Origin: a virus
Lineage: Duplodnaviria; Heunggongvirae; Uroviricota; Caudoviricetes
Virus record (IMG/VR): IMGVR_UViG_3300033062_000614
Direction: 5' to 3' (one strand)
DNA: 64,000 nt
The notes below the pieces were generated by a model. The model was not told the origin of the DNA and did not search any database. It was given only the letters and a program-made list of their open reading frames with translations. Position 1 is the first letter of the stretch, and the number at the start of each line of letters is the position of its first letter. A program made the position numbers and the translations under genes. Shown here in pieces: positions 1 through 55,918 of this stretch.

Positions 1-1
1 A

Positions 2-1363
2 ATGACTTGTTCAGAGTCAAGCCATTATAGTGCTCCAAGGCTCTCTTCCGAATACCTAGATTGCTCTATGCCTTTGACCTTTGATAGCTACTCTTATTGT
101 AGCTTTGGGTGCAGATATTGCTTCGCTGCGTTCTTTAAGGCTAACAACCCTATGCTAAAGGGTGAGAACCTAAAGCTAAAGGCAGTTGATGTTAAGCGTA
201 TAGAAGAGCTTGTGTCAGGTAAGCGACCTAATGACCCTTTGTGGAAATACTTCTTTAGCAAGCGGTATATAATGCAATGGGGCTCAATGGCTGACCCTTT
301 CTGTAACTTTGAGAAGAAGAATAGAATAGGCGAACACCTTATCAAGATATTTGGAGATTTGAAATATCCTATACGGTTCTCTTTCAAAGGTCAAGAGGTT
401 GAGACCTACCTACCTCTCTTTGACAAGTATAAAGAGGCTAAGAACTTTGCCTTTCAGTCTTCTATAATAGGGCTAGATAATGAGCTTGCCAGTAAAATCG
501 AAGTGGGAGTGCCCACCCCTGCCTTCAGATTTAAGATGTTAGGAGAGCTAGGGGCTATGGGGTATTGGACGATATTGAGGCTACGACCCTTTGTGGTAGG
601 CTTTAGTGATAGGGATTTGGATGGGCTTTTGGAGAACTGTAAGAAATATAACATAAAGGGTATATCCTTAGAGTTCTTTGCTCTTGACCTTAAATGTTCT
701 AAGGAGGTTAGAAAGCAAGTTACTAGATTAGGAGATATTCTAGGCTATGATATAGAGCAATACTACAAAGACTTGACTTCCTACAGGCGTGGTTCGTATA
801 TGAGGTTGAACCGTGATGTTAAAGAACGCTGGGTTAGAAAGATATATAGGTATTGCTACGATAACAATGTAGTATTTGGCTGTAGTGACCCCGATTTCAA
901 AGAGCTAAATATGAGTGGTAGCTGTTGTGCTCTACCTGAAGTCTTCCCAGAGAATCCAGAGATTTGTAATTATGTAAGGTCTCAGCTGACGGATAAGCTA
1001 CGGTTGATAAGGCGAAACTATTGGCAAGGTAAAAGGGGCGAAGATATACTATTGAAGTTTACTAATGTAGTCAAGGGTGACCCTAAGTTTCAAGACTTCC
1101 TATTCGACAATAAGCTGTTCAGAGACCATATAGTATATAAGACTAGCTACCTTACGGCAGAGGTTAGTTTGACTACTCCAGCCTCTTGCTTTAGGTCTTT
1201 TTGGAATAACCTTCGTTCACCTAACTGTCCTATGAACTATTTTGAGGGCAAAGTTATGCCTTGTGGTAAAGATGAAGATGGTAATTTGATATTTGAATAT
1301 AAAGAACACCCATATGAAAAGTTTTGGGTGGAAGACTTAGGTATAGATTTAGGCAAATACTAA
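2..1363 (+). CDS. Radical SAM domain protein (5' partial at window edge)
   Basis: CxxxCxxC motif 'CSFGCRYC' near N-terminus, the canonical radical-SAM 4Fe-4S binding site. The ORF opens at the window edge, so the 5' end is truncated. Confidence 0.6.
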   Translation: MTCSESSHYSAPRLSSEYLDCSMPLTFDSYSYCSFGCRYCFAAFFKANNPMLKGENLKLKAVDVKRIEELVSGKRPNDPLWKYFFSKRYIMQWGSMADPFCNFEKKNRIGEHLIKIFGDLKYPIRFSFKGQEVETYLPLFDKYKEAKNFAFQSSIIGLDNELASKIEVGVPTPAFRFKMLGELGAMGYWTILRLRPFVVGFSDRDLDGLLENCKKYNIKGISLEFFALDLKCSKEVRKQVTRLGDILGYDIEQYYKDLTSYRRGSYMRLNRDVKERWVRKIYRYCYDNNVVFGCSDPDFKELNMSGSCCALPEVFPENPEICNYVRSQLTDKLRLIRRNYWQGKRGEDILLKFTNVVKGDPKFQDFLFDNKLFRDHIVYKTSYLTAEVSLTTPASCFRSFWNNLRSPNCPMNYFEGKVMPCGKDEDGNLIFEYKEHPYEKFWVEDLGIDLGKY

Positions 1364-1564
1364 ATGTTGATTAGGTTAGATTGGAGCGATTATTCCCCAC
1401 AGAAAGTAAAAGAGTTGAAGAAAAAGGGGCATAAGGTCTTTTTAGATGTTAATTTGTGGGATATACCTAATACTATGGAACGTGCTTTAGAATCGCTTAA
1501 AAAAGTTGGGGTTGATTACGTGAGTATTCTAGAAAATGGCAACAAGGTATTAAAAAATCTATAA
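1364..1564 (+). CDS. hypothetical small protein
   Basis: ATG start abutting upstream stop, coding continuity in the same orientation. No recognisable motif. Confidence 0.35.
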   Translation: MLIRLDWSDYSPQKVKELKKKGHKVFLDVNLWDIPNTMERALESLKKVGVDYVSILENGNKVLKNL

Positions 1565-2013
1565 TGCAGTTCTTTATCTTAGGTAGGGAAGAAATTGGTA
1601 GGTTTGAGTTGAGCCATAAGTATATAGTAATATCTATCAAAGACCCAAGGTCAGAAGATGCAGAGTTACCTGAGTCCTATAATAGAGTAGATGTCTTACG
1701 GCTTGCCTTCCACGATTGGAACGAGAAACAAAGAGAATACATTGAAAAGGAATTTCCAACCTCTCCAACGGCTCAAAAGATGGTCTACTTTAATGAGGAC
1801 GATGCTAAAGCTGTAGTAGACTTTGTGTTGAAGCATAAGGATGAGGTTGAAGTGATAGTTACACAATGCGAGGCAGGTATCAGCCGAAGTGCTGGTATGG
1901 CGGCAGGTATATGTAAAGGGCTAGGACAAGATGACTCTCAGATATTCTTGAAATATCTACCTAATTCTCTAGTGTATAAGTTGGTATTGAATGAGTTTAT
2001 GAAACGGAGGTGA
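1564..2013 (+). CDS. Cys-based (CX5R) protein-tyrosine/dual-specificity phosphatase-like protein
   Basis: 'VTQCEAGISRSAG' matches the HC(X)5R(S/T) PTP/DUSP P-loop signature. Size (149 aa) fits a DUSP fold. Confidence 0.5.
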   Translation: MQFFILGREEIGRFELSHKYIVISIKDPRSEDAELPESYNRVDVLRLAFHDWNEKQREYIEKEFPTSPTAQKMVYFNEDDAKAVVDFVLKHKDEVEVIVTQCEAGISRSAGMAAGICKGLGQDDSQIFLKYLPNSLVYKLVLNEFMKRR

Positions 2014-2016
2014 GGG

Positions 2017-2277
2017 ATGAAATTGAAAGTCTTGTATGAAAATGGTGTAGAACAGATTGTTGAGGCTGATAACATAACTTTCAGCACCGATTTAGTATCT
2101 TTGAATAAGGAGAGACCCTCAAAGACTACTACGACTAGAAAGGGTTTGTTTGGCACTAAGACAACGGTCAAAGAAAGTAAAGAAGATATCAAAATAGGTT
2201 TGATTAAGTCTAGTGCAGTTCTATCCGTTTTACAAATACCAGAGCCTAAACCTAAGAAAGAGGAGGCTACACAATGA
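2017..2277 (+). CDS. hypothetical protein
   Basis: Good RBS (GGAGGTGAGGG) 5 nt upstream of ATG. Charged or Thr-rich, no motif. Confidence 0.4.
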   Translation: MKLKVLYENGVEQIVEADNITFSTDLVSLNKERPSKTTTTRKGLFGTKTTVKESKEDIKIGLIKSSAVLSVLQIPEPKPKKEEATQ

Positions 2278-3326
2278 AAATTGCTATGGTAGCCTTCCCA
2301 CTGGAGTTTGTTGGTGGGGCGAAAACTATGTTTTACAATGTTAAACAAGGCTTTGAAGATGTAGGTCATCAGGTTGGAACTTACTACATTACGACTAATA
2401 CGACCCGCAAACCCGAACCAGGTAAGAATGAATATGGTATTCAAAATATACTAGGGTTTGAAAAGCCTGAGTGGTTGAGGGAGACTTCAGATACTCTCAA
2501 CTCTTATGACTATCTTCTATATATAGGAGGATGCCCTCATCTATTGAAGAACTATCAAAAAGAGGGATGGAAGAAGCTCTATGATGTGGTAGATACCTCT
2601 AAGGTTATAGTAGCTATCATAGACTCCTATATCAGGAAATACTACCCTTGGCTTATTGATATACTTGAGAATAAGCGGGTAAAGGTGTATACTCATCACG
2701 ATAGGCTTGAGAAGTCTGTTGAGTTTTTGAAGACTATGAAAAAGCGGTTGCCCTATGCCTTTGTTATGAAACCCGATATGGGGGTATATCACGACCAGAA
2801 GAAAGAGCTAATAGTAGATACCTGTAACTTCAAAGGCTGTAAGCATAAGCATTTGTTGTTTGAATATCCGCAACTCCATAAGTTTGAGATTGTCCAGTTT
2901 GGAGATACTAACAACCCTTCCTATTATGTATTTGAGCAAGCCTTGAAACTCTACAACCTTAATATGTCAATACTAGGGTTCAAACCCTTCTTTGAGATAG
3001 CAGAGACCCTCAAGGTAGCTAAATACGGGCTTGACTTGTCTAAGTTTGGCGAGTTCTTTATCAATCTAGATAATGTTATGCTAGAGTATTGTGCTTATGG
3101 AGCGGTGCCTGTAACGATATTACCTGTAGGTAATGAGCCTTTAGGTGTGCTTCAGTTGACCTCTATAGCCGATTTGGGCAAGCTAGAGGACGAGGCTTGG
3201 AGACGACAGACTGCTGAGAGTAACTATGAGGCTCTAAAGACTCACTACGACTATAGGAATGTAGCAAAAGGACTAATTGACTTTTGGCAAGAGCCTTTCG
3301 TATCGGACGAATCAGGCTTTTGGTAA
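2274..3326 (+). CDS. hypothetical protein, possibly GT-B-type glycosyltransferase
   Basis: ATGA start-stop overlap. N-terminus 'MKIAMVAFPLEFVGGAKTMFYN' resembles the GT4 N-terminal Rossmann β1-loop (MKIxxV…GG). This is weak pattern-level evidence only. Confidence 0.25.
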   Translation: MKIAMVAFPLEFVGGAKTMFYNVKQGFEDVGHQVGTYYITTNTTRKPEPGKNEYGIQNILGFEKPEWLRETSDTLNSYDYLLYIGGCPHLLKNYQKEGWKKLYDVVDTSKVIVAIIDSYIRKYYPWLIDILENKRVKVYTHHDRLEKSVEFLKTMKKRLPYAFVMKPDMGVYHDQKKELIVDTCNFKGCKHKHLLFEYPQLHKFEIVQFGDTNNPSYYVFEQALKLYNLNMSILGFKPFFEIAETLKVAKYGLDLSKFGEFFINLDNVMLEYCAYGAVPVTILPVGNEPLGVLQLTSIADLGKLEDEAWRRQTAESNYEALKTHYDYRNVAKGLIDFWQEPFVSDESGFW

Positions 3327-3354
3327 ACAAAAACAAAAGGAAAGGAGGGTGGTG

Positions 3355-3579
3355 ATGGCACAGTTAGAAGAGTTGAAAAAAGGTATTGAGGATATCAATA
3401 CCCAAATAGCTGGGTTGAAGGAGCAGATGACTCCGTTACGTGAGCAGCGTGTAGCTTTAACTGCACAGCGTAAGGAAATCAGCTCCAAAGTAAAAGCTAT
3501 CAAGTCCCAAATAGCCCAGCTAAAACTGCAACGCAAGCAGTTAAAGGGCAAAGTCAAAACATCGAAAGTAAAGGACTGA
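3355..3579 (+). CDS. small coiled-coil protein
   Basis: Strong RBS AAAGGAGGGTGGTG then ATG at 3355. The track ORF from 3277 overlaps the upstream gene, so the start at 3355 is preferred. Heptad-rich K/Q/L sequence. Confidence 0.45.
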   Translation: MAQLEELKKGIEDINTQIAGLKEQMTPLREQRVALTAQRKEISSKVKAIKSQIAQLKLQRKQLKGKVKTSKVKD

Positions 3580-3581
3580 CG

Positions 3582-4175
3582 ATGGTAGTCTTTGTAGAAC
3601 CCCATTACGATGACTTTCTTTTGTCTGCAGGTATGTATTGTAAGAGCAGACCGATAGATGCCGTAGTAACGGTGTTCTACTCTGATTACAATAGTGGTGG
3701 GACAAGAGCCTTATGTGAAGACTTAGGGAAAAAGTATGTGGAGCTCAAGCTCCCAGATATGGATTGGAAGCAACCTTCTATCCTCTTTGACCCTACGTAT
3801 TTGCATAATGCTCTTGTTCCTCTGCTAAGTGAAGCTGAAACGATATTGACTGTCTTAGGTGTAGGACATCACGCTCACCGTTTTCTTAGAGAATTCATAT
3901 TAGAAAAGTTTAAGACTAAAGACCTCAGATTCTTCAGAGACTTTCCTCACGCCTATGACTCTACTAAGCTCAAGAACTTGCCGTTTGAAACCTATATTAA
4001 GGACTTTGAGTTGATAGAGCAGGTAGGCTCTATAGAGGGGTTCAATGATAAGGTTGATATGTTTAAGAAATACTATCCTTCTCAAAAGGGCATAATGTGG
4101 TTTGAAAAAGAGCAGTTTAGCAACCCTGTGTTTGAAGAGATTTACAGGTTCAAAGAAATGGATAGGCTATGGTAA
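3582..4175 (+). CDS. LmbE/PIG-L-like deacetylase family protein (putative)
   Basis: N-terminal 'VVFVEPHYDDFLLSAGMY' resembles the LmbE/PIG-L motif (AHPDDE…G.GG) with His-x-Asp-Asp. Modest confidence. Confidence 0.3.
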   Translation: MVVFVEPHYDDFLLSAGMYCKSRPIDAVVTVFYSDYNSGGTRALCEDLGKKYVELKLPDMDWKQPSILFDPTYLHNALVPLLSEAETILTVLGVGHHAHRFLREFILEKFKTKDLRFFRDFPHAYDSTKLKNLPFETYIKDFELIEQVGSIEGFNDKVDMFKKYYPSQKGIMWFEKEQFSNPVFEEIYRFKEMDRLW

Positions 4176-6541
4176 GTGTAGAGAAGATAATGGAATTGAC
4201 TTCCAAGAGATGCACAAAGTGCAAGTTCTTAGATAGAAAGTTTGTTCCAATGCACTCCTATTCAGATTTCAAAGAAGGGAGTGTAGTTATTTTAGGAGAG
4301 GCTCCTGGCTATGAAGAGGCTAAGACTGGTATACCCTTTATTGGTAAGAGTGGTCAACTATTAAGGGATAGCCTAGCCGAAGTAGGGTTCAATGTTAAAG
4401 AGCTAGTATTTACAAATGTTTGTAAATGCCACCCACCAGAGAATGCAACTCCAGAAGAAGAGGAGATTAAGGCTTGCACAGATTTGTATTTGAAGAAAGA
4501 GTTAGAGTTTCTAAAGCCGAGATTGATTATAGCTGTAGGTGCGGTAGCTTGTGAAGGTATTGAGCTTAATGGCAAGATTACAGAGATACGGGGCAAGGTT
4601 CTAAACTATAATGGCTCTACGGTTATACCTACCTATCACCCAGCTTATATACTTAGAAACTATGGGCACGTATCTACTTTCAAAGGCGACCTTAGAAAAG
4701 CATTCAACTACCTCTATGCCCCTTCAGTCTTTAAGGAAGAGAATAGTCATATTGTAACAGAGGTTAGCCAATTGGCTGACTTTGAGACTTTCTACAAAGA
4801 GTGTAAGAAGCGTAAGGAGATTGTAGCGGTTGACATTGAGACCAATAATACTTTAGAGCCTCTTGAAGTTGGTAGCTCTTTAGTATGTATAGGTATATCA
4901 GATGGTGAGACCCATTTCTCTATCTTTATCAATCACCAGGATGTTATAGATTTGAAGTATCGTCAACAAGCTCTAGACTTGCTCAAGCGGTTTATGAAGG
5001 ATAGAGATATAGGAAAGATAGGTCATAACTTGATATTTGACCTCAAGTGGATGGTAAGCCGAGGTATAGAGCTAGAGAATATACTGGGCGATACTATGGT
5101 AATGTGCCATATACTTGATGAGAACAGGGTTGAGTTTGACCTCAAGACTTTGACTATGGAGAACTTTGGACCATACCGACATAAGATGGATTTTGAAAAC
5201 GTCAAAGAGCTAGGACTCTATAACTGTGAAGATGTTTGTTATACTAAGAAGATTTACGAGATATTCTGGAAGAAGATGGATGCAGGTCAGCATAGTCTTC
5301 TAACTGATATCATAAGCCGAGCTATACCTGTATTAGCCCAAATGGAGCTTGAAGGTATTCAGATAGACCTTGAGTATTGTAAGGAGTTGTCCCAGCTATT
5401 GAATGTAGAGAAACAAGAACATTTGAAGGCTCTTGACCTAATGGGCTTTCAAGGGGTCAACCTTAACTCAAACCCCCAGTTGGGAAAGGTCATATTTGAT
5501 AGGTTTGGAGAAGAACCGTTAAAAACTACAAAAGAAGGTAAGAGGTCTGTTGATGAGGAGACTATCAACTACTTTGCTTATGAGAAAGACAGGGCTTGGG
5601 CTAAACATATTCTAGCCCAAAGAAAGATTACCCATTTGTTGAATACCTATGTTGATAAGTTTTACGATATAGCTGGGGCTGATGGTAGGATAAGAGGCAG
5701 GTTCAGCCAGATAGGAACTGTAACAGGGCGGTTGTCTAGCTCTAAGCCAAACCTTCAAAATATACCTAGAGACAAAAAGATTCTAAAGATGTTTGTAGCT
5801 AGTAAGGGCTTTAGGTTATTCTACTTTGACTTCTCCCAGATTGAGCTTAGAATAGGGGCATCTATTGCTAATGAGCGGACTATGATAAAGATGTATGCCG
5901 ATAACAAGGATATTCATAGATTTACCGCAAGCAGGATAATGTCCAAAGAAGAGGCTGAAGTAACTAAGGAAGACCGCCAGAGAGCAAAAGCGGTAAACTT
6001 TGGGTTTTTGTATGGAGCAGCAGCTGAGACTTTCCAAAAGGTTGCAAAAATGGACTATGGGCTAACTATACCGATTCAACAATGTGAAAGGTTTCGGCAA
6101 GCCTTCTTTCAGACCTTTCCTGACTTAGAGGCTTGGTATGATAGAGTTAGGCGAGAGATAAAGAAAACAGGTTGCGTCCGATACCCTACGGGCAGGATAC
6201 GGCATTTAACCTTGACTAGCCTAGTTGTAGAAGATAAGGCGGGAGACATATTTAGGCAAGGCGTCAATAGTCCTGTGCAGGGCGGTGCTTCAGATATAGT
6301 GCAGTTTGTAATGGGGGAGTTATTCAGGGTATTGAAAAAGCGTAAGACCCCTGCGAGATTTCTTTTGACTGTTCACGATAGTGGTCTTGGAGAGTGTTGG
6401 GACAATGATGATGTATCTGAGGAAATAAAGGGTCATTTAGAATTAATTCTAACTGAGGTTGTTCCCAATAAATTCAAATGGTTGAAAACTCCACTTACTA
6501 TAGATTTTGCAACAGGTTACAGTTGGGATAAGCTAGGATAA
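4169..6541 (+). CDS. DNA polymerase I (family A) with N-terminal family-4 uracil-DNA glycosylase domain and 3'-5' exonuclease domain
   Basis: UDG family 4 motifs 'GEAPGYEE…GIPFIGKSGQLL' and 'YHPAYILRN', plus four Cys (CTKC…CKC…C) for an Fe-S cluster. Exo I 'VAVDIETNN'. Pol A motif A 'DFSQIELRI', motif B 'RQRAKAVNFGFLYG', motif C 'LLTVHDS'. An alternative start at ATG 4190 would avoid the overlap. Confidence 0.85.
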   Translation: MVSVEKIMELTSKRCTKCKFLDRKFVPMHSYSDFKEGSVVILGEAPGYEEAKTGIPFIGKSGQLLRDSLAEVGFNVKELVFTNVCKCHPPENATPEEEEIKACTDLYLKKELEFLKPRLIIAVGAVACEGIELNGKITEIRGKVLNYNGSTVIPTYHPAYILRNYGHVSTFKGDLRKAFNYLYAPSVFKEENSHIVTEVSQLADFETFYKECKKRKEIVAVDIETNNTLEPLEVGSSLVCIGISDGETHFSIFINHQDVIDLKYRQQALDLLKRFMKDRDIGKIGHNLIFDLKWMVSRGIELENILGDTMVMCHILDENRVEFDLKTLTMENFGPYRHKMDFENVKELGLYNCEDVCYTKKIYEIFWKKMDAGQHSLLTDIISRAIPVLAQMELEGIQIDLEYCKELSQLLNVEKQEHLKALDLMGFQGVNLNSNPQLGKVIFDRFGEEPLKTTKEGKRSVDEETINYFAYEKDRAWAKHILAQRKITHLLNTYVDKFYDIAGADGRIRGRFSQIGTVTGRLSSSKPNLQNIPRDKKILKMFVASKGFRLFYFDFSQIELRIGASIANERTMIKMYADNKDIHRFTASRIMSKEEAEVTKEDRQRAKAVNFGFLYGAAAETFQKVAKMDYGLTIPIQQCERFRQAFFQTFPDLEAWYDRVRREIKKTGCVRYPTGRIRHLTLTSLVVEDKAGDIFRQGVNSPVQGGASDIVQFVMGELFRVLKKRKTPARFLLTVHDSGLGECWDNDDVSEEIKGHLELILTEVVPNKFKWLKTPLTIDFATGYSWDKLG

Positions 6542-9145: not shown

Positions 9146-9664
9146 TTGACGGCTCTAGTTAGGAGTGCCGTGGAGTTTGAACTCGTAACTAAATACCGAA
9201 ATAAATTATACTCTTACGCACGTAGGTATAATGTTCCGCCAGAAGATGTATTCCAAGAAGCTCGTATAGTTGAATGGCGGATGTCCAAATACTCCCCAGC
9301 ACACAAAGTCTCCTACTTCCTCAAATCCTGTAAAATCAATACGTTGAAAATCGCTAACTTCGGTGTAGTTGAATTAGATGAAAAGGCTCAAGAATGTTTG
9401 ATAAGCTCTGGAGACTTTGACCGCTGGTTCGAGATATATGTGGAAGAACTAGCGGATATTTTGTATAAGATAGATGAAGTGGTTGGCGATATGTTTTTAG
9501 TTAAGGTCAACAACGAACTATCTTGGGCGTCAATAAGGCGTTCCTTCTTTAATGAAGTTCCAAAGAATAGATATTGGCATAATGTTCAAGCGATTAAAGA
9601 GAAAGCCTACGATTATATTAAGGGCGAGGATAAGCCTTTTCTACAACTATTAGAGGCTGTATGA
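9146..9664 (+). CDS. hypothetical protein, possibly sigma-70 region-2-like transcription factor
   Basis: TTG at 9146; an in-frame GTG at 9170 has AGGAG upstream. 'YARRYNVPPEDVFQEARIVEWR…YSPAHKVSYFLKSC' weakly resembles sigma region 2.1–2.3 (cf. T4 gp55, a region-2-only sigma). Confidence 0.3.
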   Translation: MTALVRSAVEFELVTKYRNKLYSYARRYNVPPEDVFQEARIVEWRMSKYSPAHKVSYFLKSCKINTLKIANFGVVELDEKAQECLISSGDFDRWFEIYVEELADILYKIDEVVGDMFLVKVNNELSWASIRRSFFNEVPKNRYWHNVQAIKEKAYDYIKGEDKPFLQLLEAV

Positions 9665-12582
9665 AGATATTGATTGTAGCTGACCCACATTTGCATACCT
9701 GGTCTTCCTTTAACCTAAACAAAGCTTCAGAGTTGTCGAGGCGTTTGCAAGAACAGGACGATATTCTATCCCAAATATGTAACCTAGCAGAAGATAGAAA
9801 GGTTGACTCTGTAGAGATATTGGGAGACATATTCCATAAGGTTGGAGAGATACCTGTATTGTGCTTGAATATCTTTGATACTTTTCTAACTACTTTAGAT
9901 GATTTGGAGATACCTTATCATATTACTACAGGAAACCACGATTTAGTAGTTAGAGATAATCCTGAATGGTATCACTCTGCAACTCAACTTTTTGATAAAT
10001 GCGATGACGAGGTATACGGTCAGCTCAAAATTAAGCGTGTAGGGTATTCGGAGCACTTAGATTACGACCAAGTTAAGGGTTATGACCTAGTGTTTTTACA
10101 CAAGACCCCGTATGGGTCGAAGTATGGAAACTATACCTTTGATGAGGGTGTAGATTGGAAGACGCTGTCTGAAAACAACCGCTTGGTATTCTTTGGACAT
10201 ATACACGAAAGACAAGAGCTTTCAAAGAACTGTATTGTAGTAGGCTCTCCTATGCACTTAACCTTTGGCGATGTGGGAGAGAGGGGTGTATATATTGTAG
10301 ATACCGATACTTGGTCTATTGAATTCATCAAACTCAAATATCCTGAGTTTAGAAATGTTGAAAGCCTGTCAGAAGTTCAGGATTCATACAACTACTATAA
10401 GGTCAAAAATGTTAGAGGACAAGTTTCTACTGTTAGTAATGTTATTAGTGTTTCTGTGCCTGATTTCTTCGATGAACGATTGAAGTCTGATTCGTTTGAT
10501 GGTATTCTCAAAGAGTGGCTTCAGTTAAATCAAAAAGATGAAACTTACTTAGAGCTTATCAAAGATTTGGCGGTTGAGAAGTTTAAGCTAGCAAAACAGG
10601 TATTTCAGGGCGTTCTAGCTTCAGTTAAGGTAAAAGACTTTATGAGCATAGATAAGGCTACCTACCAAGTGAGGAAAGGCTTTATCCTTGTTAAGGGACG
10701 CAATGAGAGCTTCTCTTCCAATGGGGCGGGTAAGACCTCTTTGTTTGAGGCAATCTTTTGGGGACTTTTTGGAGAAACTACTAAGGGGCTAACTGGAGAT
10801 GATGTAATACGTAGAGGTCAAAAAGATTGCGTTGTAGAGCTAACTCTCATAAACGACAAGGGAATGTATTTAGTAAGGCGTAGCCGTAAGGCAGGGCTTA
10901 GCATAGTTATACCTGCAGATGCGGACGATGACGTAGTATTAGGGCTTAGAAAGACTGACCAGCAGACTTTGCTAGAAGAGAAGATTTTGGGCTTTGATAA
11001 AAATGTCTTTTTGGCAAGTTGCTATTTTAGTCAAGAGAACCTAGTAATGTTGACGGGTATGTCAGATACCGAGAAGACTAATACTATTACTAGCTTACTA
11101 GGTTTTGAAGTCTATGACGACTTATATGACGGAGTCTTTGATAGAATGAAAGACTTCGAGAAAGATATAGTAGACCGCAAAGTAGATGTAGAATTCCAAG
11201 AGAAGCTAGTAATTCAACAGAAGACAGAACTTGAAGGCTTAGAACGTATGGTGCAAGAGAAGCAAGATGAGATTAAGTATTATCAAAATCGTATCATAGA
11301 GGTTCAAAACAATATTGTAACCTATAAACAAGCTCTCCAAAAGGTTGAAACGATTGAAACGATTGACTACGATGCTATCTTGAAAGAGCTATACGATATG
11401 GAGCAAATTTTCAATAATCAAAAAGATAGTATTGATGAGTTTATTTCTAATCTAGACCAGAAAGACTTTCAAACTAAGACCAGACAAAGAGAGCTTCAAG
11501 CTATTCGGGGTCAATACAAGATTAACATAGTATCCTTACAAAGAGAGATTACAGCTTTGGAGGAGTTGAAGTTTGGTGAGCGTTGCGATAAGTGCGGGGC
11601 TATTATATCCGAAGCCAATGCCGAGATTTTCAAACACGACAAGGCTAAGGAGATTGAAGATATTATTGAGGTAAAGATTAAGGATATGGACTCCGAGTTC
11701 AGCGGTCTTGAGGTTACTAAGATGTCCATTGACAGGGCTAGAGTTGACCTTGACGAGAAGAGAAAGTCTGTCTTTGAGAAGCTTAACAAGGTTAGAAACG
11801 ATACTAGAGAGTCCTTGACCGAGAAGTTAGTATACCAAGCTAAGGTTCAAGATATTTCTAGCCGAAGGGGAGACTTAGAGTATAAGCTACGAGATTGTGA
11901 CAAGTCTATCAGTGATTACTCTGGTCGTATAGAAGAGATTGATGAGAAGATTAAGAAGCTTTGGGATGAAAAAGATATTAAACAAAAGGCTTTAGGAGAT
12001 GTAGAGAAACGAATAACAGAGCTTAATTGGATGATAGACAAAACCCAAAAGGGTATAGAGGCTCTAGACTTTTGGAAAGTTGCCTTCTCTCCAAAGGGTA
12101 TACGGGTTTTGTTATTAGATAGGTTCTGTAATGAGATAAACTCAATTGTTAATAACTACCTAGCTTCAATTAGCAACGGTTCTATGTCATTGGTAATCAA
12201 ACCTACCTCTATATTAAAGTCTGGCGAAGAACGCAATAAGTTAGGACTAGATATACTTCTAGGTGGGGTAGTTGTTAAATATGAATCGTTGTCTGGTGGA
12301 GAGAAGAGGCGGGTAGATGTAGCTCTTTGCTTAGGGCTTAACGAATATATAAGTAAGCGGTTTAACCTAAAGAACGGCTTGCTAGGTTTCTTAATACTAG
12401 ATGAAATCTTCAGCTATTTGGATTCAAGCGGTGAGGAAAGTATAGGGTCTTTACTATATCAAGAGGGCTTAAAGAAAGCAATCTTTGTTATATCCCATAC
12501 CGATGAATTGACAAACTATGCGGCAGATACTTGGACTGTTTCTAAAGTTAATGGAGTCTCAACATTGGAGTTGACACATTGA
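9661..12582 (+). CDS. Fused SbcD/Mre11-like nuclease – SbcC/Rad50-like ATPase (gp47–gp46-like in one polypeptide)
   Basis: N-terminal calcineurin-like phosphoesterase motifs 'VADPHLH', 'LGDIFHK', 'TGNHD', 'GHIHE'. Then Walker A 'GRNESFSSNGAGKTSLFEAI', a long coiled coil with zinc hook 'CDKCG', ABC signature 'LSGGEKRR', Walker B 'LILDEIF' and H-loop 'VISHTDE'. Confidence 0.85.
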   Translation: MKILIVADPHLHTWSSFNLNKASELSRRLQEQDDILSQICNLAEDRKVDSVEILGDIFHKVGEIPVLCLNIFDTFLTTLDDLEIPYHITTGNHDLVVRDNPEWYHSATQLFDKCDDEVYGQLKIKRVGYSEHLDYDQVKGYDLVFLHKTPYGSKYGNYTFDEGVDWKTLSENNRLVFFGHIHERQELSKNCIVVGSPMHLTFGDVGERGVYIVDTDTWSIEFIKLKYPEFRNVESLSEVQDSYNYYKVKNVRGQVSTVSNVISVSVPDFFDERLKSDSFDGILKEWLQLNQKDETYLELIKDLAVEKFKLAKQVFQGVLASVKVKDFMSIDKATYQVRKGFILVKGRNESFSSNGAGKTSLFEAIFWGLFGETTKGLTGDDVIRRGQKDCVVELTLINDKGMYLVRRSRKAGLSIVIPADADDDVVLGLRKTDQQTLLEEKILGFDKNVFLASCYFSQENLVMLTGMSDTEKTNTITSLLGFEVYDDLYDGVFDRMKDFEKDIVDRKVDVEFQEKLVIQQKTELEGLERMVQEKQDEIKYYQNRIIEVQNNIVTYKQALQKVETIETIDYDAILKELYDMEQIFNNQKDSIDEFISNLDQKDFQTKTRQRELQAIRGQYKINIVSLQREITALEELKFGERCDKCGAIISEANAEIFKHDKAKEIEDIIEVKIKDMDSEFSGLEVTKMSIDRARVDLDEKRKSVFEKLNKVRNDTRESLTEKLVYQAKVQDISSRRGDLEYKLRDCDKSISDYSGRIEEIDEKIKKLWDEKDIKQKALGDVEKRITELNWMIDKTQKGIEALDFWKVAFSPKGIRVLLLDRFCNEINSIVNNYLASISNGSMSLVIKPTSILKSGEERNKLGLDILLGGVVVKYESLSGGEKRRVDVALCLGLNEYISKRFNLKNGLLGFLILDEIFSYLDSSGEESIGSLLYQEGLKKAIFVISHTDELTNYAADTWTVSKVNGVSTLELTH

Positions 12583-13355
12583 GTTTCTGTATAGCTATAC
12601 CTTCAAAGGGTCATCTTGACGCTAAGGTTTTCAAGCTCTTGGATAAATACTACCAAGACTTAAAGCCTCAGACCTTTGTCTTTACTTTGCCTTCAGACTA
12701 CGAGGCTTACAAACAGACTTTGGACTTTAACATAGTAAAGCTACCTCAAGATGGTAAGGGTATAGGGTTTGCTAGGCATCATATTGTAGATTACTGCAAG
12801 AGCCATAACTTTGATTATGTTTGGATGCTTGATGATGCAATTACCAATGTGTTGGCTAAGGTCAACCCTAAGAGGTATCGGGTATCTAAGGTTAGAACTA
12901 GGGTCTTTGAAGAAGGAGTTAAGCTAGCACAGAAGCTAGACATATCATTACTAGGTGTAGCCTTCTCCTTTATGGGGCGGTTTCACGATGCCGAGTTGTT
13001 TGATGTTGGAGATGTTGATGCCTTTGCTCTCTATAAGATAGATGACGTTCTAGAGGTAGGCAACTTTGATAACAACTTGAGGTTTCTACCAGAGTCCGAT
13101 ATCAACTTCAAGCTAAGGCTTGCTAAGAAAAAAGTCAACTGTTGGTTTGAATATGCCTTCAACCAAAAGGTTGTAGTAGACCGAACACCTGAGTATATTG
13201 CAACTAGGCAAAAGTATATTGAGATAATGCTAAAGAGGTATCCTGGTATTATCAAGTTGTGGGATAAACACGATGGCTTTCCCCGCATAAAGACTAATTG
13301 GAGATACCTACGAAATGCCGCAAAATTTGACGGCAAGTTTCCAAAGGAGGTGTAG
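12579..13355 (+). CDS. hypothetical protein, possible GT-A-fold (GT2-like) glycosyltransferase
   Basis: 'CIAIPSKGH…GKGIGFARHHIVDYCKSHNFDYVWMLDDA' fits the GT-A core pattern (β1 'IPS…', 'G.G.ARN.G…dY..flDdD' DxD motif). TTG start overlapping upstream stop. Confidence 0.3.
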   Translation: MSFCIAIPSKGHLDAKVFKLLDKYYQDLKPQTFVFTLPSDYEAYKQTLDFNIVKLPQDGKGIGFARHHIVDYCKSHNFDYVWMLDDAITNVLAKVNPKRYRVSKVRTRVFEEGVKLAQKLDISLLGVAFSFMGRFHDAELFDVGDVDAFALYKIDDVLEVGNFDNNLRFLPESDINFKLRLAKKKVNCWFEYAFNQKVVVDRTPEYIATRQKYIEIMLKRYPGIIKLWDKHDGFPRIKTNWRYLRNAAKFDGKFPKEV

Positions 13356-14327: not shown

Positions 14328-14918
14328 ATGCCTACTGGTATTTACGAAAGAACAGTTTCTCATAAAAAAGCAATATCTCGAAGCCTTAAAAATAAGGTTG
14401 GGTTTGGAAAACATATGATTGGAAAGAAATTTACATTAGTTACAAGGTTACGTATGTCTCAATCGCAGATGGGACACAAAGGTTTTTGGCTAGGTAAAAA
14501 GAGAAATCAAGAATATTGTGACAGATTGTCTGCGATTATGAAAGAAGTTGTCAAAAAACGTAAACCTGAGCATATTCAAAAGTTTCTATCTAAAATGTGT
14601 GCAAGACCTAATTGCAACGAGCTTCGAGGGTTACAATATCTTGAATCAATCTATCCTGGTAAGTTTAAGTATTGTGGGGATGGCTCAGTTCTTATCAATG
14701 GAAAGTCTCCTGATGCAATTTCTGAAGAACTACATACAGTAGTTTTGTTTCACGGAACTTACTTCCATCTAAAAGGAGAGGAGGTGAATGACTTTAATAA
14801 GTATTTGACTGAGCAAGTAGACCAACTTCCTTTTAGGGAAGCAGGTTGGAATGTAATTGTTTTGTGGGAAGATGAGTTAAGATTAAAGACTAAAGGAGGA
14901 TATTATGTTAATAATTGA
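14328..14918 (+). CDS. Homing-endonuclease-like protein: NUMOD3-type DNA-binding motifs with C-terminal DUF559/Vsr-like PD-(D/E)xK nuclease domain
   Basis: N-terminal 'SHKKAISRSLKNK' and 'GHKGFWLGKKRN' resemble NUMOD3 repeats of phage homing endonucleases. C-terminal 'VVLFHGTYFHLKG…EAGWNVIVLWEDEL' matches the DUF559/Vsr-like terminal 'G…W…WE.E' signature. It is inserted between unrelated genes. Confidence 0.4.
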   Translation: MPTGIYERTVSHKKAISRSLKNKVGFGKHMIGKKFTLVTRLRMSQSQMGHKGFWLGKKRNQEYCDRLSAIMKEVVKKRKPEHIQKFLSKMCARPNCNELRGLQYLESIYPGKFKYCGDGSVLINGKSPDAISEELHTVVLFHGTYFHLKGEEVNDFNKYLTEQVDQLPFREAGWNVIVLWEDELRLKTKGGYYVNN

Positions 14919-18020: not shown

Positions 18021-18380
18021 ATGAAATTGAAGCGTGGATTTACTTTGGTTGAGGTTCTGATAGTTGTAGCGATTATTAGTTTGTTGGCTGCGATTGCTAT
18101 ACCGAATATGCAAGCATCGAGAGCTAAAGCAGGGCTACCGCCTTTGGGCTCTCATATACATAGAGAGGTAGCTCGCAATGCGGGAGGGGGTGATATTATG
18201 TTTAGGTTTGCTGAGTTACTTGTGATAATTGCGTTGTTGTATTTGATAGTAAACTTGTTGAGATATGCATTCTTTAGAACCAGCTCTGATGGTCATTGGC
18301 TATTTGGGCTCTCAGATGTTTGGGTAAAGAAAGATGAAACTAAGAAAAATGAAAGTGAATCTGAAAGGAGACGAAGATGA
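18021..18380 (+). CDS. Type IV prepilin-like protein (class III signal peptide)
   Basis: 'MKLKRG|FTLVEVLIVVAIISLLAAIAIPN' is a textbook prepilin leader: basic leader, Gly-1, Phe+1, Glu+5 and a hydrophobic helix. A second TM helix follows, then a basic C-tail. Confidence 0.65.
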   Translation: MKLKRGFTLVEVLIVVAIISLLAAIAIPNMQASRAKAGLPPLGSHIHREVARNAGGGDIMFRFAELLVIIALLYLIVNLLRYAFFRTSSDGHWLFGLSDVWVKKDETKKNESESERRRR

Positions 18381-19387
18381 ACAGGAGAGGTCAAGCACTC
18401 GGAATTGGGGCGGCAGTTATAGTTGTTATGGCTTTAGTAATCTTCATTATGACCTTTGGCTGGGTCAATGTGCACCCAACAGAGGTTGCAGTAGAGATTA
18501 ACAAAGCTGCGGGCAAAATCTATGATGCTCCGAAAGGGGTAGGCTATCATTTCTTCAATCGTTGGATTACGGATATGGTAGTCTATAAGGTTGCGGCAAG
18601 AGCATTTCCTGCAGAGCAGCTAGGCGAAGCTGATAGGAAGCTCTATCAATTAGATGTAAAAACAAAAGATGGACAAAATGTAGTCTTGGATTTAACAGTA
18701 TTGTATATGTTGAAGTCCAATGAGGTTCCCGCTTTACATCAACAGGTAGGTCAAAACTATGAAGACCAGATTATATTACCTCAAATAAGGTCAGAGGCTA
18801 GACTAGCAATTGGTGCTTATGCAGCAGAGGAAATATATCAGGGTAAGGTTAGGGATGAGATACAAACTGAAGTTAGACGGAAGTTGTCTCTTGCTCTATC
18901 TAAGTATCCTGCAATTCAAATAAATGATACTTTGATTAGAAACTTCACCTTTAGTCCAGAGTTTGAGAAGGCTATTGAACGAAAGAAGTTAGCTGCTCAA
19001 GAGGTAGAAATCAATAAGAACCTTGCCTTAGCAGCTGAAGAGAATGCTAAGAAAGTTGAGGCAGATGCTCGTGGCGGTAAATTGCAAGCTATACAGGTTG
19101 CTGAAGGTGCTGCCCAAGCAGTTAAGATAAATGCTGAGGCAGAAAGGTATAAACTTGAACAAGAAGCCATTGGTAAACTTGCTGGGTATAAGGCTGATGC
19201 AGAGGGCAAAAGACTTCAGGCTGAGGCTTTAGGTGGGGGTAAGAACGTTGTAGCTTTGAAGTTTGCTGAGATGTTATCACCTACCTTAAAGATAGTTGGA
19301 GTGCCTGTAGGGGCGAACTCGACTTCTATAATGGATTTGAATGGAGTTTTCAAAGGGTTGTTCAGCAACTTGGATGAATCAAAATGA
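18377..19387 (+). CDS. SPFH/band-7 (HflC/HflK/prohibitin-like) membrane protein
   Basis: N-terminal TM helix then 'VNVHPTEVAVEINKAAGKI…' SPFH core. Ala/Glu-rich C-terminal coiled coil 'AQEVEINKNLALAAEENAKKVEADARGG' typical of HflK/C and flotillins. Confidence 0.65.
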   Translation: MNRRGQALGIGAAVIVVMALVIFIMTFGWVNVHPTEVAVEINKAAGKIYDAPKGVGYHFFNRWITDMVVYKVAARAFPAEQLGEADRKLYQLDVKTKDGQNVVLDLTVLYMLKSNEVPALHQQVGQNYEDQIILPQIRSEARLAIGAYAAEEIYQGKVRDEIQTEVRRKLSLALSKYPAIQINDTLIRNFTFSPEFEKAIERKKLAAQEVEINKNLALAAEENAKKVEADARGGKLQAIQVAEGAAQAVKINAEAERYKLEQEAIGKLAGYKADAEGKRLQAEALGGGKNVVALKFAEMLSPTLKIVGVPVGANSTSIMDLNGVFKGLFSNLDESK

Positions 19388-20708: not shown

Positions 20709-21293
20709 ATGAGCACGCTGGATACTTGGAAGTTTCTACAAGAGAATCAATACTTTGAAAACCATAGGCTTTATGTATGGGAACCTGATGCACCTAAATG
20801 GGTAAAGCTAGAAGATATTAGGGGCAAAGCTATAGTAGAGATTGGTGGGGGCTTTGGCAGGCAGACCGCTTACTTTGGCAAGATTGCTCGCAAAGTTTAT
20901 ATGATAGAGGTATCAAAGACTATTATAGAGAAAGCTAAGAAGTTTCTTGATAAGCATAATGTTCATAATGTTGAGTTGTTACTAGTTGACGATTACTATG
21001 AGAAGATACCTTTTAATATAGATTATGCCTATTCTTATTTAGTCTTTCAACATATTACTCCTATGCAAACTCAAGAGTATATCGATGCTATGTATCGTAA
21101 GCTTGCTCCTTGTGGTAAGATAAACTTTCAATTTAGATTAGGCGAAGGGGCTATGTATTTACCAAAGCTAGAGCCTACAGTATTATATACTGTCAAAGAT
21201 GTAAGGCGTATGGTAAATAGATTTCATATACTACAAGAAACTGTAAAGGATGAACACATTTTTATTTACGCTAGTAAACCGCCTCAAAGTTAG
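20709..21293 (+). CDS. Class I SAM-dependent methyltransferase
   Basis: Motif I 'VEIGGGFGRQTAYF' (E/DxGxGxG) followed by an acidic motif II 'YMIEV'. RBS AGGGAGGG. Confidence 0.55.
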   Translation: MSTLDTWKFLQENQYFENHRLYVWEPDAPKWVKLEDIRGKAIVEIGGGFGRQTAYFGKIARKVYMIEVSKTIIEKAKKFLDKHNVHNVELLLVDDYYEKIPFNIDYAYSYLVFQHITPMQTQEYIDAMYRKLAPCGKINFQFRLGEGAMYLPKLEPTVLYTVKDVRRMVNRFHILQETVKDEHIFIYASKPPQS

Positions 21294-21716: not shown

Positions 21717-21898
21717 TGCCAATATGTCCTTTGTTGCAAAAGAATTGTTTGAAAGATGAATGTGCAATGTGGGTTCTGTATGACAAAGCAACTGATGATA
21801 AAGATGGGCTATGTGGTTTGATTTCTCAACCTTGCAGAAAGAGAGAAGAAAATGACAATCAAGGAGTTGATAAAGGAATGCCACAACACAGCGATTGA
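21713..21898 (+). CDS. hypothetical Cys-rich small protein
   Basis: ATGA coupling. Overlaps the MazG start by 47 nt, so the boundaries are uncertain. Confidence 0.25.
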   Translation: MMPICPLLQKNCLKDECAMWVLYDKATDDKDGLCGLISQPCRKREENDNQGVDKGMPQHSD

Positions 21899-22142
21899 GA
21901 AAGGCTTTTGGGACAAAGAGAGAAATGATGGTGAAGCTGTAGCATTGATGCACTCCGAGCTTTCAGAGGCATTGGAGGGTATGCGTCATAATAACCAAGA
22001 GAATGTAGCAGAGGAGCTTGCCGATTGTCTTATTCGTATATTTGACTACTGTGGCGGCAAAGAGATAGACCTTGAGGCTGCGTTAGTCAAGAAGATGGAA
22101 TATAACAAGACAAGACCTTACAAACACGGCAAGACTTTCTAA
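21852..22142 (+). CDS. MazG-like nucleoside triphosphate pyrophosphohydrolase
   Basis: 'ELIKECHNTAIEKGFWD…ALMHSELSEALEGMR…EELADCLIRIFDYC' matches the all-α NTP-PPase EExxE…EELaD metal-binding pattern. 96 aa is a typical phage MazG size. Confidence 0.6.
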   Translation: MTIKELIKECHNTAIEKGFWDKERNDGEAVALMHSELSEALEGMRHNNQENVAEELADCLIRIFDYCGGKEIDLEAALVKKMEYNKTRPYKHGKTF

Positions 22143-35240: not shown

Positions 35241-35560
35241 GCAATTGCAAATGTGAATATGTAGAAGAAGTAAACCCGATTCAAAGCGGTGTCAGAATAC
35301 ATAAGCTAGTCAAGAGATGCGAAGAGTGCGAAGAGGCAAATACTAAGGCTAGAGCTGATATGAAAGTCCAAGCGATTGAAAACCTCAAGCAACACATCAA
35401 GTTACTTGAGGTTGATATTCTTTCAGCTAGAACACTAGGACATTTGGACATAGTTGAATCTAAAGAGGCTACTCTCAAAGCTGCTAAGGAAGAGCTCAAC
35501 AAACTAGAAGAGCCTGTGAAAATTGAAGAAGAACCCAAGCCAAAGAGGAAAAAGAAATGA
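35237..35560 (+). CDS. coiled-coil protein with N-terminal Cys cluster
   Basis: ATG 35237 (ATGA overlap) is preferred over the track start. 'CKCEYVEE…CEECEE'. Confidence 0.4.
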   Translation: MSNCKCEYVEEVNPIQSGVRIHKLVKRCEECEEANTKARADMKVQAIENLKQHIKLLEVDILSARTLGHLDIVESKEATLKAAKEELNKLEEPVKIEEEPKPKRKKK

Positions 35561-35793
35561 GAGACATAAGAAAAGAAGTCATTGAAGTATTAGCAGAACA
35601 TAGTGGCTTATCCGTAGATGAGATTAAGGACAATTCTCATATTACGGATGATTTGGGTATGGACTCCTTAGACAATGTCGAAGCGGTTATGGCGTTAGAG
35701 GAGCGTTTTGATATAGAGATACCTGACGAGGATGCAGAGAAGCTCTTCGAAGTTCAGGATATCGTAAAATATATAGAAGGTAGGTTGAAATAA
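35557..35793 (+). CDS. Acyl carrier protein
   Basis: 'ITDDLGMDSLDNVEAVMALEERFDIEIPDEDAEKL…VQDIVKYIE' carries the canonical ACP phosphopantetheine-attachment DSL motif and helix II. 78 aa. Confidence 0.85.
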   Translation: MRDIRKEVIEVLAEHSGLSVDEIKDNSHITDDLGMDSLDNVEAVMALEERFDIEIPDEDAEKLFEVQDIVKYIEGRLK

Positions 35794-55394: not shown

Positions 55395-55918
55395 GACAAC
55401 TTCTTGAAAGACTGCTAGAAAAAGAGGTATATGCTGAGCTTGAAGATATGCCGTTGAAAAAACAGGCTCTTGTAACTCTTCTAGTTGAAATTCAGAAGAA
55501 GATGGAAGATTTGAAGGCTCGTATTGAAGAGTATAAAGGAAGGCGTGGTAAGATAGAGCCTGATATTCTTAAAGCTCTACACAAACTAGAAGCTAATGGA
55601 GTAAGATTAGGAAAGGTTCTAGTTTTCATAACACAGGGGCGAGGCTTCGCATCTTTCAAGGAAGTTATGGAAGTTGTGCAAAAGGAGATAAGCCCTAAAG
55701 TTGCGAAGCTTTTGAAAGCTACTTATGATGAGCTCTCCAAAGAGAAAACTAGGGGAGAAGAGCTTCGTGTAAAGCTAGGACGTGAAAGTCTGTTAGATGA
55801 GGATTGGAAAGATGTATGGCAGAACATTGTTAATTTCTTTGCCAAAGTTTTCAATCCGTTGTTAGATAGCATATCTGGTTCAATTGAAGATGTTGAAAAA
55901 CTGCTTGGGATAAAATGA
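55391..55918 (+). CDS. hypothetical protein with CTS-like N-terminus
   Basis: 'MRQLLERLLEKE'. ATGA coupling. Confidence 0.45.
   Translation: MRQLLERLLEKEVYAELEDMPLKKQALVTLLVEIQKKMEDLKARIEEYKGRRGKIEPDILKALHKLEANGVRLGKVLVFITQGRGFASFKEVMEVVQKEISPKVAKLLKATYDELSKEKTRGEELRVKLGRESLLDEDWKDVWQNIVNFFAKVFNPLLDSISGSIEDVEKLLGIK

Follow-up and report, generated by a model that had tools for sequence, protein, structure and literature searches.

A candidate DNA pyrimidine-hypermodification module beside a UDG-polymerase fusion gene in an uncultured myovirus

We analysed a 64-kb stretch (the window) of the 114-kb source contig of virus record IMGVR_UViG_3300033062_000614; about 50 kb of the contig lies outside the searched DNA. 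The phage is an uncultured myovirus with genes for a T4-type portal, a major capsid protein, sheath, tube and baseplate, all window genes are on the plus strand, and the GC content is about 0.40. No near-identical DNA was found among 50,697 phage records. Positions 1-6541 hold eight open reading frames (ORFs), including genes for a radical S-adenosylmethionine (radical-SAM) enzyme, a divergent GT-B glycosyltransferase, a predicted LmbE/PIG-L-fold enzyme and a DNA polymerase with a family-4 uracil-DNA glycosylase (UDG) domain, and a gene for a TAGT-type glycosyltransferase lies further downstream (Table 1). We consider it rather probable that this region and the TAGT gene form a post-replicative DNA pyrimidine-hypermodification module within the replication operon, while the identity of base and sugar, the sequence of the steps and the radical-SAM reaction are proposed with much lower confidence than the module. 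An earlier note on this DNA had claimed a base-hypermodification tool-kit here. The claim is strengthened by homology to M6 gp53, T4 alpha-glucosyltransferase (AGT) and TAGT and by a conserved gene slot, a phosphatase that the note had included is not part of it, and we still infer the module as a whole.

Table 1. Genes and domains of the candidate module, with their positions in the window
Feature	Position	Strand	Basis or remark
SPL-like radical-SAM enzyme, M6 gp53 homologue, partial	1..1363	+	CX3CX2C; profile vs gp53; ~25 N-terminal codons upstream of window
OMP decarboxylase-like fragment, 66 aa	1364..1564	+	Pfam OMPdecase 1.6e-8; NCBIfam PRK00230 2.6e-13
Cys-based (CX5R) PTP/DSP-like phosphatase	1564..2013	+	QCEAGISRS; Pfam DSPc; phrog_5614
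86-aa ORF	2017..2277	+	No Pfam, PHROG or NCBIfam match
Divergent GT-B (GT4-like) glycosyltransferase	2274..3326	+	Family profile; closest solved relative of family is T4 DNA alpha-glucosyltransferase
74-aa coiled-coil protein	3355..3579	+	Pfam matches solely of coiled-coil type
LmbE/PIG-L-fold metal-dependent de-N-acetylase-like enzyme	3582..4175	+	Predicted fold, motifs
Replicative DNA polymerase, UDG-exonuclease-PolA fusion	4169..6541	+	790 aa; Pfam, TIGR00758, 1UI0 alignment
 UDG domain	~4169-4738	+	
 3'-5' exonuclease domain	~4751-5278	+	
 PolA domain	~5375-6529	+	
TAGT (TET-associated, GT-A-like) DNA-base glycosyltransferase	12579..13355	+	Pfam TAGT (PF20691) 1.4e-11

The eight ORFs abut or overlap on one strand, with TAAATG, TAATG and ATGA junctions and a 7-nt overlap into the polymerase gene, and from this arrangement they are predicted to be translationally coupled. 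Promoter and terminator consensus scans of the DNA gave matches at chance level (35 vs 31.4 expected and 10 vs 8.5 expected, respectively).

The radical-SAM gene begins upstream of the window. In contig L002, which is near-identical to the window lineage and extends upstream of position 1, the full ORF starts 75 nt before the window, encodes 478 aa and overlaps a 134-aa gene. An independent JGI contig (L001; 7,386 bp, 15 mismatches) begins at the same base as the window, inside this gene; the shared start is a recurrent assembly break, and the L002 sequence continues across that point. The cluster motif C-SFG-C-RY-C (CX3CX2C) is invariant in 13 homologues of the enzyme. With ORF 2-1363 as the query, the Pfam Radical_SAM match was weak (E 0.014; 16 bits vs a cut-off of 29.5), radical-SAM families of the PA0069/Rv2578c type in NCBIfam matched at 2e-11 and 4e-10, far under their cut-offs, and phrog_13321 was also matched. 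When the family profile (A4) was aligned with M6 gp53 using hhalign, Prob was 95% and E was 2.6e-8 over 211 columns, with a DPF motif in common, and phmmer with gp53 retrieved several family members at 1.8e-6 to 6e-4. By these comparisons the window enzyme is a homologue of M6 gp53, and the motif, the NCBIfam matches and this homology agree with the radical-SAM enzyme that the earlier note had claimed. No radical-SAM enzyme other than M6 gp53 has been shown to introduce a modification into DNA (PMC8989533); gp53 is an isomerase resembling spore photoproduct lyase (SPL) and converts N-alpha-glycinylthymidine to the C-alpha isomer (PMC8989533). The homology thus supports a role of the window enzyme in DNA modification. 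The protein had no match in cultured phages by tblastn. Assignment as a ribonucleotide reductase activase, QueE or viperin was dropped, since only families of the PA0069/Rv2578c/gp53 type score (viperin, 0.084). In L066 (8708-11179), the homologue appears to be split within CX3CX2C by some 335 additional residues that resemble an intein, and the host protein resumes at '...HNCFSQFQRG'.

The polymerase consists of UDG (residues 36-170), exonuclease (195-370) and polymerase (403-787) domains by Pfam, which scored the UDG at 8e-29 and DNA_pol_A at 8e-85 and also matched DNA_pol_A_exo1, and the protein ends with the polymerase domain. The UDG part lies above the curated family-4 threshold (TIGR00758 UDG_fam4, 132.1 bits vs a cut-off of 125.3) and could be aligned to Thermus UDGA (1UI0) with an E-value of 2.6e-36. 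In this alignment GEAPG (residues 43-47), the uracil-stacking F57, N83 and H157 in HPAY are in register, as are the four 4Fe-4S cysteines (Cys15, Cys18, Cys87 and Cys103). Judged from these residues, the family-4 UDG domain is intact with all catalytic motifs, as the earlier note had read it, and uracil excision is predicted. The closest cultured-type match is the UDG-PolA of uncultured Caudoviricetes record MW202455 (31.9% identity). Further matches at 26-32% identity include Bacillus phages YungSlug, SP-10 and SBSphiC and Pseudomonas phages PMBT14/Almagne; the polymerases of SP-10, SBSphiC, YungSlug and Goe26 are 27-28% identical, and those of Pseudomonas and Clostridium phages score similarly.

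It has been reported that the UDG domain is active in SPO1-like and SP15-like polymerases and inactive in N4-like ones, that in the SP15-like enzymes it removes dU that enters when a dUMP-derived route replaces dTTP, and that active UDG-PolA fusions are tied to phages with modified thymidine (bioRxiv 10.1101/2025.03.26.645540); these reports agree with the statement of the earlier note that such fusions accompany non-canonical pyrimidines. Compared with the SPO1-like group (Missoury et al., bioRxiv 10.1101/2025.03.26.645540), the window polymerase has the same domain order, in which an N-terminal UDG that keeps its catalytic motifs precedes the exonuclease and polymerase parts, and it also contains neither the SP15-type inserts nor the C-terminal domain. 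Its 790-aa length and SP-10-type best matches fit this group, the assignment being one by architecture and best matches, and it is only 26-32% identical to any polymerase of a cultured phage. For the major capsid protein, the best cultured relatives, at about 30% identity, are Bacillus phage SP-15, Listeria phage LiS04, Bacillus phage HSE3 and Maribacter phages, and SP-15 DNA carries a glycosylated, hypermodified thymidine (bioRxiv 10.1101/2025.03.26.645540). We count the capsid kinship with SP-15 and LiS04, together with the modified thymidine of SP-15, as support for the DNA-modification reading.

Loci with related radical-SAM genes were obtained by scans of viral, genome and metagenome collections (16, 47 and 80 loci, respectively) and were annotated using local HMMs that were derived from clustered neighbours and M6 seeds. 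In the close relatives (L019-L022, L074 and L075; radical-SAM identity 72-78%), the order is clamp loader, two genes of about 130 aa, radical-SAM, GT-B, a gene of about 78 aa, LmbE and UDG-PolA, and then a 170-aa gene, gp32 and RecA; the shorter locus L074 ends past the polymerase. This core order, kept in the relatives, argues that the arrangement is not due to chance. The counts for the virus clade refer to 30 loci, non-redundant at <90% radical-SAM identity and each followed by 6 kb or more of sequence, all retrieved via the radical-SAM gene. In these related loci the radical-SAM gene sits upstream of a replicative polymerase, which was detected in 23 of the 30 (16 PolIII-alpha, 6 PolA and 1 PolB), and a UDG domain is encoded in 24, placed N-terminally on PolA, C-terminally on PolIII-alpha or free-standing before PolB. 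At least one of TAGT, GT-B and a kinase homologue lies downstream of the radical-SAM gene in 26 loci: TAGT in 13, with the window's own copy counted, GT-B in 11, and a kinase resembling M6 gp54, which acts on 5-hydroxymethyl-dU (5-hmdU) in DNA, in 4.

The gp54 homologues lie between the radical-SAM and polymerase genes in L011, L014 and L015 (phmmer 9e-13, 2e-11 and 1e-7, respectively) and likewise in L077 and L117; they were assigned by phmmer with M6 gp54 and a weak Pfam HMUDK match. The same slot holds a protein weakly similar to T4 beta-glucosyltransferase in L005, and elsewhere SPASM and B12-binding radical-SAM enzymes or a DUF2284 protein. Loci from metagenome-assembled genomes (MAGs) of gut and rumen form a second group, whose radical-SAM proteins are about 28-34% identical to the window family. 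Here a kinase homologue adjoins the radical-SAM gene in at least eight loci, and L067:1745-3691 encodes a 648-aa fusion of a gp53-like radical-SAM part (residues 14-422) and a P-loop domain like the 5-hmdU DNA kinase (residues 462-589). Since kinases and glycosyltransferases, both of which derivatise a base hydroxyl, alternate in a fixed slot, we suggest that the whole unit serves DNA hypermodification.

These neighbourhoods also bear on a repair function, in which the radical-SAM enzyme would reverse thymine photoproducts as SPL does, the UDG would excise uracil, and the glycosyltransferases would be unrelated neighbours. The enzyme does belong, by its PA0069/Rv2578c matches, to a 'DNA repair photolyase'-type group, M6 gp53 itself carries that annotation, and the UDG domain is of a genuine repair type. 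However, neither the protein nor its family profile had a significant match to SPL or any other entry in sequence searches of PDB, the radical-SAM enzyme is fused to or adjoins 5-hmdU kinase homologues, and a group-transfer enzyme accompanies it in 26 of the 30 loci. In addition, a phosphatase-bearing locus of the MAG group (L072) has an NrdD-type anaerobic reductase gene, which would fit anaerobic, dark habitats. We regard repair as a very unlikely explanation of the locus.

Several further observations were made in these loci. A gene of about 130 aa without a family match lies directly upstream of the radical-SAM gene in 26 of the 30 loci, usually overlapping it (L002:1226-1630), and may encode a partner subunit of the enzyme. 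The polymerase family is swapped in otherwise syntenic replication modules in which the UDG persists (among others L012:14662-18054, L003:7714-11103, L014:9478-12900 and L005:5063-7818), the PolIII-alpha type combining PHP and pol3 alpha domains, and we found no description of PolIII-alpha-UDG fusions in the literature searched. In the MAG loci, we recognised by eye a putative acetyltransferase with a GNAT-like motif, a ParB-like protein and a terminase among the neighbours, and a MetK-like gene (GHPDK motif) a few genes upstream of the radical-SAM/kinase cluster (L037:6838-7866 and 11 other MAG loci), which may supply SAM for the radical enzyme. A 225-aa family (A7) beside the MAG kinase was considered as an aGPT-Pplase and was not supported (hhalign vs M6 gp51, Prob 3%; no PDB match).

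The GT-B and LmbE-like proteins had no direct Pfam, PHROG or NCBIfam match and no tblastn match in cultured phages, and both are very rare (6 and 4 clusters, respectively, among 5.8 billion proteins). The AlphaFold2 model of GT-B was poor (pLDDT 47), with confidence only in an N-terminal Rossmann-like domain, and it was not used; remote homologues were profiled instead. An exhaustive profile search found 70 of these, and among the 56 scanned, Glycos_transf_1 was present in 16, Glyco_trans_1_2 in 13 and Glyco_transf_4 in 13. When the family profile was searched against PDB, T4 AGT (1Y6F/1XV5) came first at 7.6e-11 with both domains aligned, followed by BshA-type structures (2JJM/3MBO, 8e-10; also 5D00) and many GT4 structures. 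The near-invariant residues G14, G15 and E271 (LEYCAYGAVPV) presumably correspond to the GT4 pattern. The GT4, AGT and BshA matches favour the GT-B glycosyltransferase that the earlier note had held possible at 2274, and its LmbE/PIG-L-like deacetylase at 3582 holds as to fold: by structure prediction the protein has an LmbE/PIG-L fold and is de-N-acetylase-like, with Dbv21, the GlcNAc (N-acetylglucosamine) deacetylase of A40926 biosynthesis, as the best match. The HxDD motif (H8, D10 and D11) and H99 do not vary among the homologues, even in L080, which is 31% identical and reads HPDD. The interval between the two genes, occupied by the 74-aa ORF in the window, holds a 78-aa gene in L019-L022, a likeness of position alone.

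A glycosyltransferase and a deacetylase side by side could instead form a metabolic cassette, in which the pair, perhaps with the phosphatase, makes a glucosamine-containing small molecule or envelope glycoconjugate after the models of bacillithiol, mycothiol or GPI synthesis, and the adjacency to the polymerase is incidental. In BshA/BshB, MshA/MshB and PIG-A/PIG-L, a GT4 gene is canonically followed by an LmbE gene, three BshA structures are among the top PDB matches, and the phosphatase resembles an additional phosphatase step of mycothiol synthesis. On the contrary, the pair is fixed between a gp53-like radical-SAM gene and a UDG-polymerase gene in four lineages, namely the window, L074, L019-L022/L075 and the distant L080/L081, down to 44% radical-SAM identity, and the slot holds TAGT or a 5-hmdU kinase in sister loci. 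Moreover, the first PDB match is a DNA glucosyltransferase, the phosphatase is a recent insertion, as described below, and no BshC/MshC-like ligase was seen. Such a cassette is in our view improbable.

The phosphatase belongs to a stretch of 0.9 kb (1364-2277) that the closest relatives (L019-L022 and L074) lack. Because GT-B directly follows the radical-SAM gene there, we consider the stretch to be a lineage-specific insertion. It begins with the OMPdecase fragment, which spans only profile positions 38-84 of 221 (VFLDVNLWDIPNT). The conserved, catalytic Lys of what we take to be the DxKxxD motif appears as Asn in this fragment, and it probably does not work as a decarboxylase. The fragment resembles a captured gene remnant and is joined by TAAATG and TAATG junctions to the radical-SAM and phosphatase genes. 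In the phosphatase, the motif is CEAGISR, the Pfam DSPc match is weak (0.0056), and sequence searches of PDB gave nothing meaningful. Among its 74 homologues, several are named 'predicted protein tyrosine phosphatase' by JGI and five have PF00782; two with inspected neighbourhoods come from other large phages with unrelated adjoining genes. The homologue in L072 also has an SPFH gene nearby. Homologues of the 86-aa ORF were found solely in L002 and the window lineage. The earlier note had placed a CX5R phosphatase in the module: the motif and the homologues uphold the enzyme, whereas its membership is contradicted by the absence of the insertion from close relatives. A part as a core pathway enzyme was dropped for this reason and for the unrelated contexts of the two inspected homologues, and the phosphatase, the OMPdecase fragment and the 86-aa ORF are a later insertion, probably irrelevant to the module.

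The GT-A-like protein that the earlier note had seen at 12579 is a TAGT above the Pfam gathering threshold (45.1 bits vs 27.5). It also matches phrog_842, 'beta-glucosyl-HMC-alpha-glucosyltransferase', at 2.8e-14, and is 33% identical to the TAGT sited between the radical-SAM gene and the UDG in L005; the sole tblastn match in cultured phages is partial and lies in Nonlabens phage P12024L. The gene starts with a TTG that overlaps the stop codon of the preceding gene (9661-12582), which encodes a 973-aa fusion of an Mre11-like phosphoesterase (SbcD) and a Rad50/SbcC-like ATPase. Two genes past TAGT lies a homing-endonuclease-like gene with a NUMOD3 motif (14328-14918), and a similar gene is found in L005 (5-721), upstream of the radical-SAM gene.

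Here, we need to consider cytosine as the modified base. In such a scheme 5-hydroxymethylcytosine (5hmC) or 5-hydroxycytosine (5hoC) would be made elsewhere in the genome and glycosylated by the AGT-like enzyme and TAGT, for which T-even phages, TET phages and RB69/DLP3 are precedents. Tailoring of the sugar would then fall to the radical-SAM and LmbE enzymes. T4 AGT acts on 5hmC, phage TET-associated glycosyltransferases add glucose or GlcNAc to 5hmC in DNA (PMC8256090), pathways to glycosylated 5hoC from ThyA homologues were recently described (PMC13326640), and the PHROG label of the TAGT gene names a glucosyl-HMC glucosyltransferase. However, gp53, the sole characterised homologue of the radical-SAM enzyme, and the kinase in sister loci are enzymes of a thymidine (5-hmdU) pathway, the near-universal UDG suits a dUMP-derived route, and the window yielded no C5-methyltransferase, TET or dCMP hydroxymethylase, nor did the ORFs scanned there have a Tet_JBP match. 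Thymine is favoured over cytosine because of the gp53 homology, the kinase and the UDG, and we judge a cytosine modification to be unlikely.

The favoured reading, a post-replicative module that acts on thymine, has to be weighed against several points. First, the two glycosyltransferase types concerned, TAGT and AGT, act on cytosine where they have been characterised. Second, the GT-B family matches the small-molecule enzymes of the BshA type almost as well as AGT (8e-10 vs 7.6e-11), and the narrower family around the window protein itself matches AGT weakly (C-terminal domain; Prob 69%, E 4.4e-5). Third, the LmbE assignment comes from a model built on four sequences, and the second motif, HPDH, has become (H/N)xAH, in which the Asp is replaced by Ala and only the final His (H99) is kept. 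Fourth, the 64-kb window yielded neither a dUMP/dCMP hydroxymethylase (ThyA homologue) nor a TET/JBP, a 5-hmdU kinase or an aGPT-Pplase, which agrees with the earlier note, where the hydroxymethylase and kinase were stated to be missing. Searches of the window with E. coli ThyA and M6 gp58 (phmmer) gave no ThyA homologue, a deaminase, dUTPase, dCTPase and C5-methyltransferase were likewise not found there, and among the loci annotated with ThyA-like seeds, a ThyA-like gene within 10 kb occurs solely in L152. Finally, the known substrate of M6 gp53 requires an aGPT-Pplase, of which no homologue was detected in the window or in the relatives' loci. The window thus has neither the kinase nor the aGPT-Pplase expected beside a gp53-type enzyme, and its relatives have the kinase, adjoining or fused.

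The pathway that we propose for the thymine-modifying module would run as follows. PolA would incorporate a hydroxyl-bearing pyrimidine, most likely 5-hmdU, whose synthesis from dUMP would depend on a gene outside the window, and the fused family-4 UDG would remove dU entering from an enlarged dUTP pool, as in SP15-like enzymes. The AGT-like GT-B would then transfer a hexose from a nucleoside diphosphate sugar to the base hydroxyl, the predicted sugar being GlcNAc, and the LmbE-fold enzyme would deacetylate it to positively charged glucosamine. A glycosyltransferase followed by an LmbE-type deacetylase is the two-step amino-sugar logic of MshA/MshB, BshA/BshB and PIG-A/PIG-L, and it is by analogy with these systems and Dbv21 that GlcNAc transfer and subsequent de-N-acetylation are predicted. 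TAGT may add a further sugar or serve other sequence contexts. Finally, the gp53-like radical-SAM enzyme might carry out a radical rearrangement or C-C bond formation on the appended group via a 5-thymidyl-type radical.

A bolder version, which we consider quite doubtful, makes the radical-SAM enzyme the founder of the pathway. It would activate the C5-methyl group of thymine in newly made DNA through a 5-thymidyl radical, without oxygen. No firmer is the product that we would expect in this case, 5-hydroxymethyluracil or a direct C-C adduct, which would feed the interchangeable kinases and glycosyltransferases and lead here to a glucosaminyl, base-J-like nucleotide. We raise it because the group-transfer neighbours swap freely and, among the annotated loci, only L152 has a hydroxylating gene of the ThyA or TET type within 10 kb. 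If true, the founding enzyme would be an anaerobic, radical-SAM-based counterpart of the JBP/TET dioxygenases and the dUMP hydroxymethylases.

Among the known systems, the closest is the M6 cluster, which consists of gp51 (aGPT-Pplase), gp52 (a pyridoxal phosphate enzyme), gp53 (radical-SAM isomerase) and gp54 (5-HMUDK) (Lee et al., PMC8989533). The window shares with it a homologous SPL-like radical-SAM enzyme and the post-replicative logic, and its relatives pair this enzyme with gp54-like kinases as M6 does, one of them fusing both. In contrast, the window has no kinase, aGPT-Pplase or pyridoxal phosphate enzyme, and has instead two glycosyltransferases and an LmbE-fold deacetylase; its module lies in a replisome operon with a UDG-polymerase, whereas that of M6 lies beside a thymidylate-synthase homologue. 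Regarding the T4 alpha- and beta-glucosyltransferases, which act on 5hmC DNA, T4 AGT is the best solved relative of the GT-B family profile at very low identity, and the window adds a deacetylase and a radical-SAM enzyme, while dCMP hydroxymethylase and dCTPase were not found in it. Cytosine hypermodification clusters with TET/JBP and TAGT in phages were reportedly described by Iyer et al. in 2013. Such clusters (Burke et al., PMC8256090) have a TAGT-family enzyme in common with the window, in which no TET/JBP dioxygenase or C5-methyltransferase was found. The systems MshA/MshB, BshA/BshB, PIG-A/PIG-L and Dbv21 share with the window the fold pair and gene order, and they act on inositol, malate, lipid and glycopeptide, whereas the genomic context in the window points to DNA.

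Other genes of the window were noted in passing. A type IV pilin-like protein (prokaryotic N-terminal methylation motif) and then an SPFH/Band-7 protein are encoded at 18021-19387, a class-I SAM methyltransferase at 20709-21293, and a MazG-like pyrophosphohydrolase, which could help shape the dNTP pool, at 21852-22142. A 78-aa acyl-carrier-protein-like ORF with an LGMDSL phosphopantetheine-attachment motif lies amid structural genes at 35557-35793, and a HAD-like hydrolase (55915-56328) and a Pol-beta-type nucleotidyltransferase (56316-57287) are found further downstream. The Pfam census of the window also includes a cold-shock-domain protein.

UDG-PolA fusions and a combinatorial gene pool for thymidine hypermodification are already known. 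In the literature searched, we found no case in which a gp53-type radical-SAM enzyme occurs together with both an LmbE deacetylase and DNA-glucosyltransferase-like enzymes, and no description of such a tool-kit within a replisome operon or of its persistence across polymerase families. To our knowledge, the known thymidine pathways add amino acids or polyamines via a kinase and a pyrophosphorylase, and the sugar modifications that we know of are found on cytosine, apart from those of SP-15 and YerA41, whose bases are poorly understood. The module described here predicts a base that bears an amino sugar and a positive charge, undescribed so far, which would most likely evade host nucleases. Hypermodifications of phage DNA defeat restriction enzymes and CRISPR nucleases, and they are a source of enzymes for labelling DNA and for sequencing chemistry. 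A radical-SAM enzyme, a variable tool-kit, and a UDG with a polymerase form a widespread unit in uncultured phages that persists across polymerase families A, B and C, and this unit provides both a gene set for expression and a marker for phages with modified DNA in metagenomes.

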